Virus record (IMG/VR): IMGVR_UViG_3300045988_094645
Length of the DNA: 64,000 nucleotides
Source of the DNA: a virus
Reading direction: 5' to 3' (one strand)
The notes beneath the pieces are model-generated. The model did no database searches and had not been told where the DNA came from. It saw only the letters and a list, made by a program, of their open reading frames with translations. Positions 20,287 through 24,854 of the stretch are shown here, piece after piece. Every line of letters begins with the position of its first letter. Within the stretch, counting starts at the first letter, position 1. Position numbers and translations under genes: made by a program.

Positions 20287-21009
20287 TTAAAAGAAGGGGC
20301 AGGTTGGCATTTCCTCTGTTTTATGTAGATTTCTCTTGTGTCTCTGCTCAATATTCTTATATACTTCATACGAAGGAGTAATACGATATAGCAAAAAGTT
20401 ATCAAGAATTTTATAAGAAAAGCCCAGATTCTCTTCATCTGAGAGTCCAGTTAATCCATCTTCTGGGACTTTTTCTATAAACTTCTCCGGTAGACCAAGT
20501 TCTGAACCAATCTCTTTAACTTCTGTTACTGTATAGTTGTATAGAATTGAAAAATCTCCTGCGGAATCACCAAATTTAGTTGAATAACCAACATAATTTT
20601 CGCTTCTATTGCAAGTGTTTACAACTCTACCATGTCGAGCGGCAGCAATAGCATAAAGAATATTCATTCTTTCTCTTGCTGGAACGTTGCTTACAACTTG
20701 AGGAAGATTACGAATATCAGAAGGTAGGGAGGAAAAAGTTGCTTTGCAAGCCTCTCCGATGTTAATATTATAATGTTCTTTAATGCCTAGATACTCAATA
20801 ACTTCATTTGAAATATCAATGTCTGATTGATACCCTTGTGGCATTTGAACTGCAATTACATTTTCTGGCCCAATAGCTTTACAAAGTAGTGCGGCGGCGA
20901 CAGTAGAATCTTTCCCTCCAGAAATACCAATAACAGCTTTGCAGTCCGGGCCGTTGTTGATAAAATATTCTTTAATCCAGTCAATAATTCTTTGAACTCT
21001 TCTTGTCAT
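20287..21009 (-). CDS. nadE: NH3-dependent NAD+ synthetase
   Basis: PP-loop GISGGKDSTVAA. Confidence 0.8.
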   Translation of the reverse strand: MTRRVQRIIDWIKEYFINNGPDCKAVIGISGGKDSTVAAALLCKAIGPENVIAVQMPQGYQSDIDISNEVIEYLGIKEHYNINIGEACKATFSSLPSDIRNLPQVVSNVPARERMNILYAIAAARHGRVVNTCNRSENYVGYSTKFGDSAGDFSILYNYTVTEVKEIGSELGLPEKFIEKVPEDGLTGLSDEENLGFSYKILDNFLLYRITPSYEVYKNIEQRHKRNLHKTEEMPTCPFF

Positions 21010-21014
21010 AAGAT

Positions 21015-22604
21015 TTACTCTCCCATCAGTCGATTTTTAATTGTATAAAAATCTTCCTCGTTTTCGCGTACAAAAACACCATCTTTTACTTTGAATTTCA
21101 TTACATTATCTTTATATTCAGTGGCTTCTTTAAGAGTAAGATTTTCAACAAGACTATATTGGCCCTCTGAGTCTTTTATAACCGCTACGCATCCGCGAGG
21201 AGATTTTTTCCCAGGATCGGTTTTTGGCATCTTGTAGATTTGGATTTCATCTTCTCCAAGAATACAATCGGTAGCCTTAATTGCATAGCCTCTAGTGTCA
21301 CGAGTTACATATTGATAAGTATATGCGCCAATTCCAAAACAGATATTTGATACTGAAATAGAATTATTGACACACCAATTACATATCTTTTCAGTAATCT
21401 CGGGAGTGATCGCATCACCATAAATAACACGAATACAAGAGGGAAGCTCAAAATAACCCTTTCTATTAAGGTTACCGCCAAAAGTATCAAAGAGACTGAC
21501 AAGAGTTCCTTTACCCTCCGGGGAGTCAGGATCAACAGCAAAACTTGTGTCCCCGCAAATGATTTTTACTGGATCTCCGCTATCGGGGCGAATGGAAAGG
21601 CATCCATCCCGCTGCTCGATAACGTCTCTCAACGCGGGAACAATTTTAGATACTACACCCCAATAATCATATGTATCTGCTACGTAAGTCATTGTCCCAG
21701 TAGGCTGAATATTGATAAGAAGATGGCGCAGGAAGAGCATCTCAGCAATAAGATTAACTTCCCAATTTTCAGAGAGGCAAGTATTGAGTAGAGCTTGCTC
21801 CTCGGCTTCTAGCTCACCATTGAACATCTGCGCTCTTTTCCATGCTACACCCTGTTCAACAACAGAGTGCTCCAGAGATGGAGTTCCCATTAGAGGAGGA
21901 TTATTCTCCAAGTCTGCTCTGTAATATTTCTCCAAAAGAAGGTTAGAACCAATAGTCGCAGTTCTATCAAAAGACAGGGCGTGCGCGGCGCCGGAGATAT
22001 AGCCCGCTTCAAGTGAAGTATGACCGCGGAGAGAGAAGTCACCGCACATATGCGGGAGAGCAGACATATTGTCACAGGTCATCTTAACATAAGGCTCGAT
22101 TAGCTTACGTCGATAGAAGGCTGTCGTGGCAGAAGTAGAAGGAAGCCAGTTATTTGCACTCCACTGATCTTCAATAAACTGCGGAAGCCACGCAAATTCA
22201 GGATCAGTAGAAAAAATAACATGATCTGGAATACCAATAGGAAGAAGTGTACCTTCGGGAACTCCCATAATTGAAATGGGAAGATAGCCAAGCTCGTAAA
22301 GCTTCCTAAACTTGCTGAAATCTGCATAGCCAGGATGGAAAGTATCCTTGATTACCCTGTTCCACTCGCTTTCAAGCAGATCAATGGGCTGATTAAAAAA
22401 TTCTGCCTGCCAGTAATTAAGCAGTCGCTGGATAGTATATTGATGGCCAAACACTACAGTTTTGGCGCAGTCTTTATGATATTTATTGCTACGAGCAGTC
22501 CAAGTAGAATACACCATCTTTGCGTCGGTAGGCTGCATTTTAACCGCATGACCAATCTTATAATAGTCTGCCGCAAACATAGGTGCTACATCAAAGAAAC
22601 TCAT
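21015..22604 (-). CDS. nadV: nicotinamide phosphoribosyltransferase family protein (NadV/NAMPT, possibly Namat)
   Basis: 529 aa with NAMPT-family composition; follows a Prs-like gene. Confidence 0.8.
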   Translation of the reverse strand: MSFFDVAPMFAADYYKIGHAVKMQPTDAKMVYSTWTARSNKYHKDCAKTVVFGHQYTIQRLLNYWQAEFFNQPIDLLESEWNRVIKDTFHPGYADFSKFRKLYELGYLPISIMGVPEGTLLPIGIPDHVIFSTDPEFAWLPQFIEDQWSANNWLPSTSATTAFYRRKLIEPYVKMTCDNMSALPHMCGDFSLRGHTSLEAGYISGAAHALSFDRTATIGSNLLLEKYYRADLENNPPLMGTPSLEHSVVEQGVAWKRAQMFNGELEAEEQALLNTCLSENWEVNLIAEMLFLRHLLINIQPTGTMTYVADTYDYWGVVSKIVPALRDVIEQRDGCLSIRPDSGDPVKIICGDTSFAVDPDSPEGKGTLVSLFDTFGGNLNRKGYFELPSCIRVIYGDAITPEITEKICNWCVNNSISVSNICFGIGAYTYQYVTRDTRGYAIKATDCILGEDEIQIYKMPKTDPGKKSPRGCVAVIKDSEGQYSLVENLTLKEATEYKDNVMKFKVKDGVFVRENEEDFYTIKNRLMGE

Positions 22605-22660
22605 AAAATCTTCCTTTCCTTATTTCTTTACTATATTATAACATATATTTTTATAAAAAT

Positions 22661-22684
22661 AAAAAGCTCTCTTGCGAGAGCTTT
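22661..22684 (-). terminator. terminator hairpin
   Basis: aaaagctctcttgcgagagctttt. Confidence 0.55.
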
Positions 22685-23056: not shown

Positions 23057-23502
23057 TTTAGAATCTCCCCAACAACAGCGCTTACAATTTTCATATCAGC
23101 TTTGCCTTTGAGTGCTACAGAAGCATACTTCATAATTGAACCTCTGTTTGCTTTAAGGAGATCTATACCTGCGGCAGCCGCAATTTCTCTTACTCTTGTT
23201 TCAATCTCTGCTTTATCTGTAAGAAGCTGTGGGGCACACATTTTTACGATTTTCATATCCTCTTGATATTGATGCAACTTCTCAGGATAATTAGCGGGAC
23301 AGGTATCAATCATTTCTTGCACAGTTTTTTGATACTTAATAAGAGTTTCATCAATTAGCTGCTCTGTTAGTTCTACTCTTCCCTTCGGGGTAATTGTTGC
23401 TTTCTGACACGAATCAATCATGTCAGAAAGCACTCTCTTTGTATTTACGTCTCCATTTTTAAGAGCTGCAATTTTTAGTGCTTGAAGTTTTTCAATAGTC
23501 AT
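23053..23502 (-). CDS. hypothetical protein
   Basis: ORF track. Confidence 0.35.
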   Translation of the reverse strand: MTIEKLQALKIAALKNGDVNTKRVLSDMIDSCQKATITPKGRVELTEQLIDETLIKYQKTVQEMIDTCPANYPEKLHQYQEDMKIVKMCAPQLLTDKAEIETRVREIAAAAGIDLLKANRGSIMKYASVALKGKADMKIVSAVVGEILK

Positions 23503-24311
23503 CGGACAATTTCTACCTTTCCTCTAGTATCCCACTCAGGCTTAAAGATGCTATCAGTGGTAAAGATTTTCTTTACAACATCCTGATTATACATATCACC
23601 CTCAACCATAGTGTGTTCTGCATGAGTAACGTAAAGATAAATATTTTTTGCTCCTGCTTCTTTTAGAGCATTTGCCGCGTGATAAAAAGTGCCTCCCCGA
23701 GAGCAAATATCGTCTACAATTAGAACACCCTTATCTTTAACCAACTCACCATTCATTAGTTGTAGACCAAGAATTTTTCCAGTAGACCAATCCCTCTTTT
23801 TAATTCCAAAAGCGTATGGGAGATTAATTGCTGGAGTGGAATATCTCTTCATAGCTCCCTCGTCTGGGAAAAATAGAACGGGAGTTTCTTTTTCATAATG
23901 CTCAAAAAGTTTGATAGCCTCTTTGATTTCTCCAATAGGAGTAAGATCAATCACCCTATCGAGCAGAGCTAATGCTACATTAGAATGAGCATCTCTTACA
24001 ATGACTTTATCGAAGTGAAGGCTATTGATTACTTGACAGAAGTATTTAAGTGTAAACACATCTTCAAGTTCCTGAACTCTGTCCATTCTCGCATGAGGAA
24101 TATATGGCATATCCAGATTCACGGGACAATCCTTAAAATGTCCCTTTACACAGATCAGAGTGAACAGTTCTGCATCGTTCTCATATTCCCAAATGATGGT
24201 ATCATAATCAAAATAATTGGGCGGCATATTAATGTGTAGCGTTCCATCGGGAAAATGATTTTGTTCAATTACATCTGTCCAATGACTGCGCGTGTTAATC
24301 AGACTAATCAT
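23499..24311 (-). CDS. ribose-phosphate pyrophosphokinase-like phosphoribosyltransferase (Prs/Adps-like)
   Basis: PRPP-binding motif VLIVDDICSRGGT. Confidence 0.65.
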   Translation of the reverse strand: MISLINTRSHWTDVIEQNHFPDGTLHINMPPNYFDYDTIIWEYENDAELFTLICVKGHFKDCPVNLDMPYIPHARMDRVQELEDVFTLKYFCQVINSLHFDKVIVRDAHSNVALALLDRVIDLTPIGEIKEAIKLFEHYEKETPVLFFPDEGAMKRYSTPAINLPYAFGIKKRDWSTGKILGLQLMNGELVKDKGVLIVDDICSRGGTFYHAANALKEAGAKNIYLYVTHAEHTMVEGDMYNQDVVKKIFTTDSIFKPEWDTRGKVEIVR

Positions 24312-24314
24312 TTC

Positions 24315-24854
24315 TTAATCCTCCACATCAATCTGTTGAGCTTTGAAAATAGTTAGTGCCGCCTCGTGCGATTCTGGAGTTACTCCTGCGCACGCACTAG
24401 AATGAACGATAATTCTAGTATTTGGCAACGCTGCACGAAGCATAACTGCATTAGCCATAACGCAAACATCAGTGCAAAATCCGCAGATATGAATTTCTAC
24501 TTCCTCTGGATTCTTCATCTTTAGAGAATCATATATTTCATTAACCATATCGGTACTACCAAAGGTGTCTTTTTCATAATAATTAAACTTGTTATTCAAC
24601 GCAATCATGACTCTGGAATCCATACACCAGCCCACGCTTGCCTTAATACAATGTTTAACAGGAAGTTTCTTTCCTTCCAAAGTGTCGAAGTAATCGTCAT
24701 CATGGGTATCCATAGTACAAATAACTTCTTCCCAGCAATATCGCTTAATTAGATCAACGATATTAGGAACTGCGGCATCTGCCTCCTTTGTACCTAGCGC
24801 CCTAGTGATGAAATCATTTTGAGCATCAACAATTATAAGTATCTTTCTATACAT
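24315..24854 (-). CDS. isochorismatase-family hydrolase (PncA nicotinamidase-like)
   Basis: IIVDAQNDF ... catalytic CGFCTDVCV. Confidence 0.65.
   Translation of the reverse strand: MYRKILIIVDAQNDFITRALGTKEADAAVPNIVDLIKRYCWEEVICTMDTHDDDYFDTLEGKKLPVKHCIKASVGWCMDSRVMIALNNKFNYYEKDTFGSTDMVNEIYDSLKMKNPEEVEIHICGFCTDVCVMANAVMLRAALPNTRIIVHSSACAGVTPESHEAALTIFKAQQIDVED

Follow-up and report, generated by a model that had tools for sequence, protein, structure and literature searches.

Which route to NAD+ does a virus encode when a Prs-like and a NAMPT-family gene lie together with genes for a nicotinamidase and a NAD+ synthetase? This question is raised by a locus in a human-gut phage, IMG/VR virus record IMGVR_UViG_3300045988_094645, of which a stretch of 64,000 nucleotides (hereafter the window) was analysed. 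An earlier note on this DNA had grouped an isochorismatase/nicotinamidase-like (PncA-like), a Prs-like, a NAMPT-family and a NadE gene and compared them with NARP1 (NAD+ reconstitution pathway 1) of phages, in which Adps and Namat rebuild NAD+ from ADP-ribose (ADPR) and nicotinamide, with NARP2, i.e. NadV and nicotinamide mononucleotide (NMN) chemistry, as the alternative. We report that all four genes are present at the limits given there, on the minus strand, and that they belong to one tightly packed six-gene operon covering positions 20287-24854, with the same outer limits as in that note. Comparison with related phage and chromosomal loci indicates that the operon probably encodes a deamidated form of NARP1: nicotinamide would be converted to nicotinate and ADPR to ADPR pyrophosphate (ADPR-PP), the two would be joined to give nicotinic acid adenine dinucleotide (NaAD), and NadE would turn NaAD into NAD+.

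We also lean towards a wider proposal, namely that the NAMPT-family transferase of this operon (here Namat*) catalyses a hitherto undescribed reaction, nicotinate + ADPR-PP -> NaAD, and that together with PncA, Adps and NadE it makes up a fourth, deamidated NAD+ reconstitution pathway. This pathway would be widespread among the TAG-recoded phages and jumbo phages that infect gut Clostridia, and many Clostridium species would also have it as a chromosomal operon regulated by NrtR (via ADPR), in which it replaces PncB and NadD.

Affiliation of the Prs-like and NAMPT-like proteins

The Prs-like protein (270 aa; 23499-24311, minus strand; phrog_619, E=1e-67) was compared with housekeeping Prs and with SPbetaL1 Adps. 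Against the Prs model TIGR01251 it scores 95.9 bits, below the cutoff of 113, as does SPbetaL1 Adps with 106 bits, while E. coli Prs reaches 422.7; in both the window protein and SPbetaL1 Adps the first ~26 positions of the profile are unmatched. Conversely, a canonical-Adps hidden Markov model (HMM), built from 43 Adps adjoining Namat genes of the Asp type (Asp at position 215, SPbetaL1 numbering), gives 229 bits for the window protein vs 123 for E. coli Prs. In pairwise alignment the window protein shares 38% of its residues with SPbetaL1 Adps and 24% with E. coli Prs, and the best solved Prs structure matches with 67 bits only. In these sequence comparisons the protein sides with SPbetaL1 Adps, which has been validated biochemically, and not with housekeeping Prs, and it is predicted to act as an ADP-ribose diphosphokinase (ADPR + ATP -> ADPR-PP + AMP). 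The suspicion of the earlier note that it is of the Adps type rather than a bona fide Prs is thereby strengthened.

For the NAMPT-like protein (529 aa; 21015-22604, minus strand; PF04095, E=2.9e-24; phrog_448, E=1e-135), the closest PDB sequences are those of SPbetaL1 Namat (9w5x/9w5w, 334 bits), ahead of NadV from Haemophilus ducreyi (263 bits) and of human NAMPT (~137 bits). Its AlphaFold2 (AF2) model (mean predicted local distance difference test, pLDDT, 88.7) superposes best on Namat, with template-modelling scores (TM) of 0.86/0.94. The adenine clamp helix of Namat carries the motif GSX-phi-X-phi-X-phi-TRD, of which positions 3 and 7 are aromatic (PMC12774641). In the window protein this segment reads G426-A-Y-T-Y-Q-Y-V-T-R-D436, with Tyr at motif positions 3, 5 and 7, so that both adenine-stacking aromatics are present; the phi positions are Thr, Gln and Val, and the sole deviation from the motif is Ser -> Ala at position 2. 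In the clamp loop, K41-Y42 aligns with R40-V41 of SPbetaL1, and a Lys followed by a stacking residue is the arrangement of the Bas63 type (PMC12774641). Judged by sequence and by the modelled fold, the protein is thus nearest to Namat and not to NadV. Relative to SPbetaL1 Namat it also has a ~30-residue helical insertion just past the catalytic His (residues ~250-288; helices 246-262, 267-278 and 283-299, modelled with high AF2 confidence), which is kept in the window protein and its Phass-1-like relatives.

These affiliations bear on NARP2, according to which the NAMPT-like protein would be a NadV that makes NMN from nicotinamide and phosphoribosyl pyrophosphate (PRPP), with an NMN adenylyltransferase (NMNAT) encoded elsewhere in the genome. 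Membership in the NAMPT family fits this, and the part searched is 64 kb of a ~147-kb genome. Against it, the protein is nearer to Namat than to NadV/NAMPT and has the Namat-type clamp, the nicotinamide-binding Asp is absent (see below), the operon includes an Adps-like gene, and Osterman et al. (10.1101/2024.02.11.579819) found the two pathways together in no phage. Moreover, a Pfam scan of the 39 larger open reading frames (ORFs) of the window (>=122 aa) revealed no NMNAT (PF01467), Nudix or Macro gene, and tblastn with E. coli NadD gave no match in the 64-kb window or in the fetched Namat-family loci; nor was NMNAT/NadD present in the two operon types inspected with Pfam, and neither the window nor the fetched loci hold a nicotinate phosphoribosyltransferase of the PncB type. 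We therefore regard NARP2 as very improbable. Instead of the housekeeping Prs, canonical NadV and separate NMNAT that the earlier note had set against its own reading, the window has an Adps-like and a Namat-like protein and no detectable NMNAT. The NARP1-like layout proposed there is present in the sense that proteins of the Adps and Namat types are encoded in one operon, two small genes apart.

The pyridine pocket and its genomic company

The nicotinamide pocket of SPbetaL1 Namat is formed by F189, R192, D215, A242, R306, D13' and Y15'; D215 hydrogen-bonds the amide of nicotinamide and the D215A change lowers NAD+ synthesis 8.1-fold (PMC12774641). In human NAMPT, specificity for nicotinamide is determined by the equivalent residue, Asp219 (PMC7096376, PMC12143786). 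The window protein has Ala (Ala216) in place of D215 and Ser (Ser243) in place of A242, and these are the sole changes among the listed pocket residues; D13, Y15, F190, R193 and R339 are conserved, as is H246. Further changes relative to SPbetaL1 are G188 (H187), G240 (S239) and R214 (G213); with its presumed side-chain orientation, Arg214 is a candidate for an Arg gained by the pocket in the window lineage. All 119 of the closest homologues in the databases share Ala at 215 and Ser at 242; their identity reaches as low as 41%, and chromosomal proteins from Clostridium are among them. Thus, the assumption of the earlier note that this is a canonical Adps + Namat pair using nicotinamide could not be upheld, since the amide-binding Asp is replaced and a second pocket residue is changed.

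When 461 alignment columns were scanned, four separated Asp from non-Asp proteins without overlap, namely SPbetaL1 positions 187, 215, 239 and 242. We take these to correspond to His191, Asp219, Ser241 and Ala244 of human NAMPT. The D219S mutant of the human enzyme is said to have been found by Khan and colleagues, in 2006, to accept nicotinic acid. Ser occupies the D215/D219 position in the KTS-type relatives of the window protein; the position is thus homologous to that of the human mutant, with the difference that D219S was engineered in an enzyme using PRPP, while the change here is natural, clade-wide and in an enzyme of the ADPR-PP type. His191 of human NAMPT is located at the tunnel (PMC7464552). 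By alignment, all four class-specific columns are at or beside nicotinamide-pocket residues, around the carboxamide end and the adjoining tunnel, and the functional divergence accordingly maps to where the pocket reads the substituent at C3 of the pyridine ring.

To relate pocket type to neighbouring genes, we took 166 loci of the Namat family, with flanks of up to 8 kb, from IMG/VR and GTDB genomes and recorded for each the residue at 215 and any PncA, Adps or NadE gene nearby. Neither PncA nor NadE occurs within 8 kb in the Asp-type loci (0/44 for both), against 110/122 (PncA) and 86/122 (NadE) in the loci with Ala or Ser (non-Asp); by Fisher's test p=1.6e-29 for PncA and 2e-18 for NadE, values that overstate the independence of the loci. 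Among loci flanked by 5 kb or more on each side, the numbers are 0/32 for both genes in Asp-type loci and 81/84 (PncA) and 64/84 (NadE) in non-Asp loci, and a recheck with PncA and NadE profile HMMs gave the same pattern. Ser at 242 is completely linked to the non-Asp state, and Adps is kept in 113 of the 122 non-Asp loci. The non-Asp lineages comprise R-T-A pockets (the window and Phass-1), K-T-S pockets (many gut phages and prophages, with an insertion in the clamp) and G-T-A pockets (Clostridium chromosomes), in addition to the types V-S-A, V-T-S, K-T-A, S-T-A and G-S-A. Across them the linkage is maintained down to ~31% sequence identity, in phage and chromosomal settings and through changes in gene order. 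Overall, the PncA/Adps/NadE gene set adjoins a NAMPT-like gene in >100 independent phage and bacterial loci, a recurrence far beyond chance. PncA and NadE are thus part of the cluster, as the earlier note had it; a reading of them as generic salvage additions is not supported, however, and they keep company with the non-Asp pocket alone.

The PncA-like protein (179 aa; 24315-24854, minus strand; PF00857, E=4.3e-20) scores 21.8 bits against the NCBIfam equivalog PRK11609 (cutoff 174). Every PDB sequence that it matches is a nicotinamidase or pyrazinamidase (5zn8/6a8l, 1ilw/1im5, 2wt9, 3pl1), and its catalytic triad (D10/K95/C131) and metal ligands (D49/H51/H68) are intact. These residues are invariant in 108-109 of 109 PncA homologues adjoining Namat* genes, and the protein is predicted to be a nicotinamidase (nicotinamide + H2O -> nicotinate + NH3). 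NadE (240 aa; 20287-21009, minus strand; PF02540, E=1.6e-47) scores 157 bits against TIGR00552 (cutoff 63.65), and each of the 16 PDB matches listed at E<=1e-15 is an NAD+ synthetase, with 15 bearing the name NH3-dependent; no glutaminase domain is present in its 240 residues. In its P-loop, SGGKDS, residues S30, G31, G32 and D34 are invariant in 84/84 NadE neighbours of Namat* genes and S35 is kept in 82/84, with K33 variable. It is predicted to catalyse NaAD + ATP + NH3 -> NAD+ + AMP + pyrophosphate (PPi).

These observations also bear on a canonical NARP1, in which Namat* would make NAD+ from nicotinamide and ADPR-PP, PncA and NadE would boost flux through the Preiss-Handler pathway of the host, and the pocket changes would have no effect or act on affinity alone. 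In agreement with this are the Adps-Namat layout, the clamp motif and the closest structure, and SPbetaL1 D215A retains ~1/8 of its activity (PMC12774641). A co-expressed nicotinamidase would, however, destroy the substrate of Namat, PncB and NadD, never encoded in the operon, would still be required of the host, and neutral drift is hard to reconcile both with four perfectly class-specific columns around the carboxamide site and with the distribution of PncA and NadE described above; we consider this explanation unlikely. The constant company of PncA and NadE also argues, indirectly, against the sufficiency of two genes (Adps + Namat -> NAD+). On the sequence evidence, the cluster is better read as a deamidated variant acting via nicotinic acid and NaAD, distinct from canonical NARP1.

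The proposed route compared with known pathways

The deamidated route would be set in motion when a host NADase of the SIR2, TIR or SEFIR type splits NAD+ into ADPR and nicotinamide. PncA would deamidate nicotinamide to nicotinate and NH3, Adps would pyrophosphorylate ADPR to ADPR-PP, and Namat* would join nicotinate and ADPR-PP to NaAD with release of PPi. The NH3-dependent NadE would finally re-amidate NaAD to NAD+; the NH3 of the first step could be reused here, balancing the last. The net reaction would be ADPR + Nam (nicotinamide) + 2 ATP -> NAD+ + 2 AMP + 2 PPi. One plausible rationale is that gut-Clostridia hosts salvage via nicotinate, and that nicotinamide released by an NADase would be rapidly deamidated there. 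It is also plausible that the additional ATP-driven step would render the reconstitution irreversible.

As in NARP1 (10.1101/2024.02.11.579819, PMC12774641), the window has an Adps-clade and Namat-clade pair, the adenine clamp, the His/Arg/Asp catalytic core and a phage context. It differs from NARP1 in the four class-specific residues (Asp215 -> Ala, Ala242 -> Ser, His187 -> Gly and Ser239 -> Gly) and in its nicotinamidase and NadE, neither of which was seen beside an Asp-type Namat; the predicted product of the transferase is NaAD instead of NAD+, and the route would take four steps and two ATP, compared to two steps and one ATP in NARP1.

The Preiss-Handler pathway (PncA-PncB-NadD-NadE) likewise begins with PncA, ends with NadE and passes through NaAD, and the bacterial relatives of the window operon are likewise preceded by the ADPR-responsive NrtR. 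In the window, however, PncB and NadD are absent and Adps and a Namat-like protein stand in their place, the phosphoribosyltransferase belongs to the NAMPT/Namat clade, and the ribosyl-adenylate part would be taken ready-made from ADPR and not be built from PRPP and ATP. A PRPP-dependent version has to be weighed nevertheless: the Prs-like protein would make PRPP, the NAMPT-like protein would convert nicotinate, fed by PncA, and PRPP to nicotinic acid mononucleotide (NaMN), and host NadD would form NaAD for the NadE of the phage. Use of nicotinate, with either ribosyl donor, would be in line with the altered pocket and with PncA and NadE as linked neighbours, NadD is present in every host, canonical Namat retains PRPP-dependent activity (PMC12774641), and the KTS-type relatives have an insertion of 9-10 residues in the adenine clamp. 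On the other hand, on Prs models the score of the Prs-like protein resembles that of the validated Adps and falls far short of a true Prs, the Namat-specific clamp with both stacking aromatics is kept in the window protein, NadD is found in none of the operons, and the Clostridium pair (see below) replaces pncB and nadD jointly and not pncB alone. Furthermore, users of PRPP need no dedicated Prs paralogue, and NARP2 phages have no Adps (10.1101/2024.02.11.579819), so that the retention of the clamp, which selects ADPR-PP, in the window protein and of Adps in most non-Asp loci supports ADPR-PP as the donor. Taken together, we judge the PRPP-dependent version to be rather unlikely.

In the K-T-S clade (L020, L054-L087 and L150-L167; e.g. 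L078, 3630-13252) the insertion lies inside the adenine clamp (GAFCFSA…VVTRD), and the ribosyl donor of these proteins may differ. Their clusters also hold a Tpt1/KptA RNA 2'-phosphotransferase, a SLOG (YAcAr) protein and a PurA-like gene.

Several points weigh against the deamidated route. A neighbour-joining tree supports the K-T-S and R-T-A clades with 100% bootstrap each and the monophyly of all non-Asp proteins with 36%, and the association with PncA and NadE may therefore trace to one or a few events. The clamp segment 426-436 is the sole low-confidence part of the AF2 model (pLDDT <50), and in the window lineage S391, a Ser in contact with the phosphate of NMN, is replaced by Ala. Since canonical Namat keeps appreciable activity with PRPP (PMC12774641), NaMN could also be a product. 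The G-T-A proteins of the Clostridium type have gained no positive charge at position 213, the search for NMNAT covered the 64 kb of the window in a genome of ~147 kb, and nicotinate as the substrate of the third step is deduced from pocket residues and gene neighbours. Finally, the route would cost twice the ATP of NARP1.

Among other pathways, NARP1-AP (Adps, the Macro-domain phosphatase Adpp and Namat; 10.64898/2026.01.28.702374) and RyDEP-extended NARP1 (10.64898/2026.05.28.727677) are enlarged NARP1 operons as well. Their accessories act on the ADPR side (ADPR-1''P or cyclic ADPR to ADPR) with Namat unchanged, in contrast to the window, where the accessories belong to the pyridine side and it is the transferase pocket that differs; the Pfam scan of the 39 larger window ORFs gave no gene with a Macro or RyR domain. 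NARP2 (NadV + NatV) and NARP3 (PnuC + NadR; PMC13464706) are also phage pathways for restoring NAD+. They differ from the window operon, which pairs Namat features with Adps and lies in a window with no NMNAT, NadR or PnuC, and NARP3 was set aside as an unrelated pathway.

The NARP1, NARP1-AP, NARP3, RyDEP and Namat-structure papers, like the NAD-ADPr survey (Aravind), mention no PncA, NadE or nicotinic acid partner and no non-Asp Namat class, and a search of the full-text literature, with subscription-only literature outside it, gave no prior description of a nicotinate-type NARP1. Of 50,697 phage records deposited, 47 contain NadE and 7 contain PncA homologues, these 7 being from human gut throughout; this rarity in cultured-phage collections may explain why surveys of isolates missed the variant. 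If true, our proposal would give NAD metabolism a further enzymatic reaction and the NAD+ conflict between phages and bacteria a further branch, with NARP1-type chemistry adapted to hosts that rely on nicotinic acid, i.e. gut Firmicutes. It would also provide a sequence rule that splits "Namat/NAMPT" genes into those for nicotinamide and those for nicotinate (Asp or non-Asp at D215/D219 together with Ala or Ser at 242), and a conserved Clostridium operon would be reassigned to ADPR recycling.

Chromosomal counterparts, operon boundaries and genome context

Many Clostridium chromosomes have the gene order nrtR-adps-pncA-namat*-nadE (L090-L134 and others; e.g. L091, 5276-10359). In one of these loci (L096, 5698-10220) the Pfam matches are NrtR_WHD with NUDIX, Pribosyl_synth, Isochorismatase and NAD_synthase, and in C. 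beijerinckii a microbial PARG follows the operon in place of NadE. NrtR adjoins 43 of 52 G-T-A loci and none of the Asp-type loci. It is a repressor released by ADPR, and in C. acetobutylicum the order is nrtR-pncA-pncB-nadD-nadE (PMC2330246). Comparison of the two orders puts Adps and Namat* in the position where PncB and NadD make NaAD from nicotinate. This looks like a non-orthologous displacement and would fit the proposed chemistry, and the Clostridium operon may thus serve ADPR-induced recycling of NAD in place of pncB and nadD. Its genes are now annotated as prs and as nicotinate or nicotinamide phosphoribosyltransferase.

Megablast of the cluster against deposited phages gave no nucleotide match. 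An ENA metagenome scaffold of 147 kb, with the genes in the same order, encodes a NAMPT-like protein identical to that of the window. The nearest annotated relative, found at the protein level alone, is Phage Phass-1 (human gut, "Caudoviricetes code 15 clade"), whose NAMPT-like protein is 65% identical to that of the window. In Phass-1 the genes run from nicotinamidase through Prs, NAMPT and a 139-aa ORF to a "hypothetical" protein, which is NadE.

All six genes of the window operon are preceded by a ribosome-binding site, they overlap or are separated by 3-83 bp, and their stop codons are TAA or TGA. The earlier note had four genes lying together; they do share the operon, but two further ORFs split the Prs-like from the NAMPT-like gene, namely those for a YqeY/GatB-C-like protein (149 aa; 23053-23502, minus strand; PF09424, E=8.9e-10; phrog_1460) and for a small protein (122 aa; 22688-23056, minus strand) classed as a membrane protein by its hydrophobicity, which has no match in Pfam, NCBIfam or PHROGs. 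The YqeY-like gene is limited to the window-like lineage (L003-L008 and L088) and absent from the Phass-1-like, KTS-type and Clostridium versions of the operon; the 122-aa protein is conserved solely in L003-L008 (52-64% identity). The two (22688-23502) are thus inserts between Adps and Namat* particular to the window lineage. Consensus scans place a terminator-like hairpin (20258-20288, minus strand; with a stem of 13 bp, a loop of 5 nt and a T-rich tail) immediately behind the stop codon of NadE, at the 3' end of the operon, and a promoter-like site (20258-20231) between this hairpin and the next gene downstream. That gene, for a metallophosphoesterase (19489-20223), was considered as a NARP1-AP-like phosphatase of the operon and rejected, because the terminator and promoter-like site lie in between; it is also conserved in the window lineage alone and fits the adjacent RNA-repair set (kinase, ligase and Thg1-like protein).

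TAG is apparently a sense codon in this phage. The thyX gene (3208-3800, minus strand) is complete only via two in-frame TAG codons (…KRIE*CGRVCYKS… and …KFV*NIIKRGHE…), and other frames bounded by TAA/TGA hold 10-12 of them (4115-5068, 12234-13685 and, on the minus strand, 55578-56612). The NAD operon has no in-frame TAG, so that recoding as a distortion of its six gene models was rejected, and its expression would be possible before the suppressor tRNA is made.

The operon is embedded in an island of RNA-repair-like genes (17505-20223 and 25094-29430, minus strand). These encode an RNA ligase (25094-26368), a Thg1-like 3'-5' polymerase (18651-19538), an AAA_33 kinase (18056-18589), RlaP (28633-29430) and three metallophosphoesterases (17505-18059, 27767-28636 and the one at 19489-20223 mentioned above). 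Together, the operon and the island suggest a counter-defence region against immunity that targets tRNA or NAD.

A counter-defence role of the operon would be in keeping with NARP1 and NARP2, both of which have been shown experimentally to act in counter-defence (10.1101/2024.02.11.579819). The same chemistry could have another purpose, as an auxiliary metabolic module copied from Clostridia that recycles ADPR and nicotinamide from ordinary NAD+ consumers (phage or host ADP-ribosyltransferases, Tpt1, NAD+-dependent ligase) and raises NAD+ for replication without dedicated counter-defence. The nrtR-regulated chromosomal versions in at least 43 Clostridium-type loci suggest such housekeeping recycling in bacteria, related phage clusters carry the NAD+-consuming Tpt1/KptA, and the window operon sits amid RNA-repair genes. 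Apart from the precedent of NARP1 and NARP2, what speaks against it is that a TAG-free operon in a TAG-recoded phage is compatible with early expression. This explanation, which concerns purpose alone and is compatible with the proposed chemistry, seems quite unlikely to us.

Elsewhere in the window, an array of 30 tRNA genes (35238-54453, minus strand) includes a suppressor tRNA with the anticodon CTA (36130-36204), and a tmRNA gene (47763-48078) encodes the tag peptide DNDYFENYLAA; the array with its suppressor tRNA and the tmRNA fit kinship with Phass-1 of the "code 15 clade". Beside the array, an 811-aa protein (30773-33208, minus strand) matches domains of the eukaryotic Major Vault Protein (MVP_shoulder, E=1.1e-17; Vault_3; Vault), and it is adjoined by a 506-aa protein with DUF2828 and DUF7788 (33588-35108, minus strand). 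A vault-like protein next to a tRNA array is unusual for a phage.

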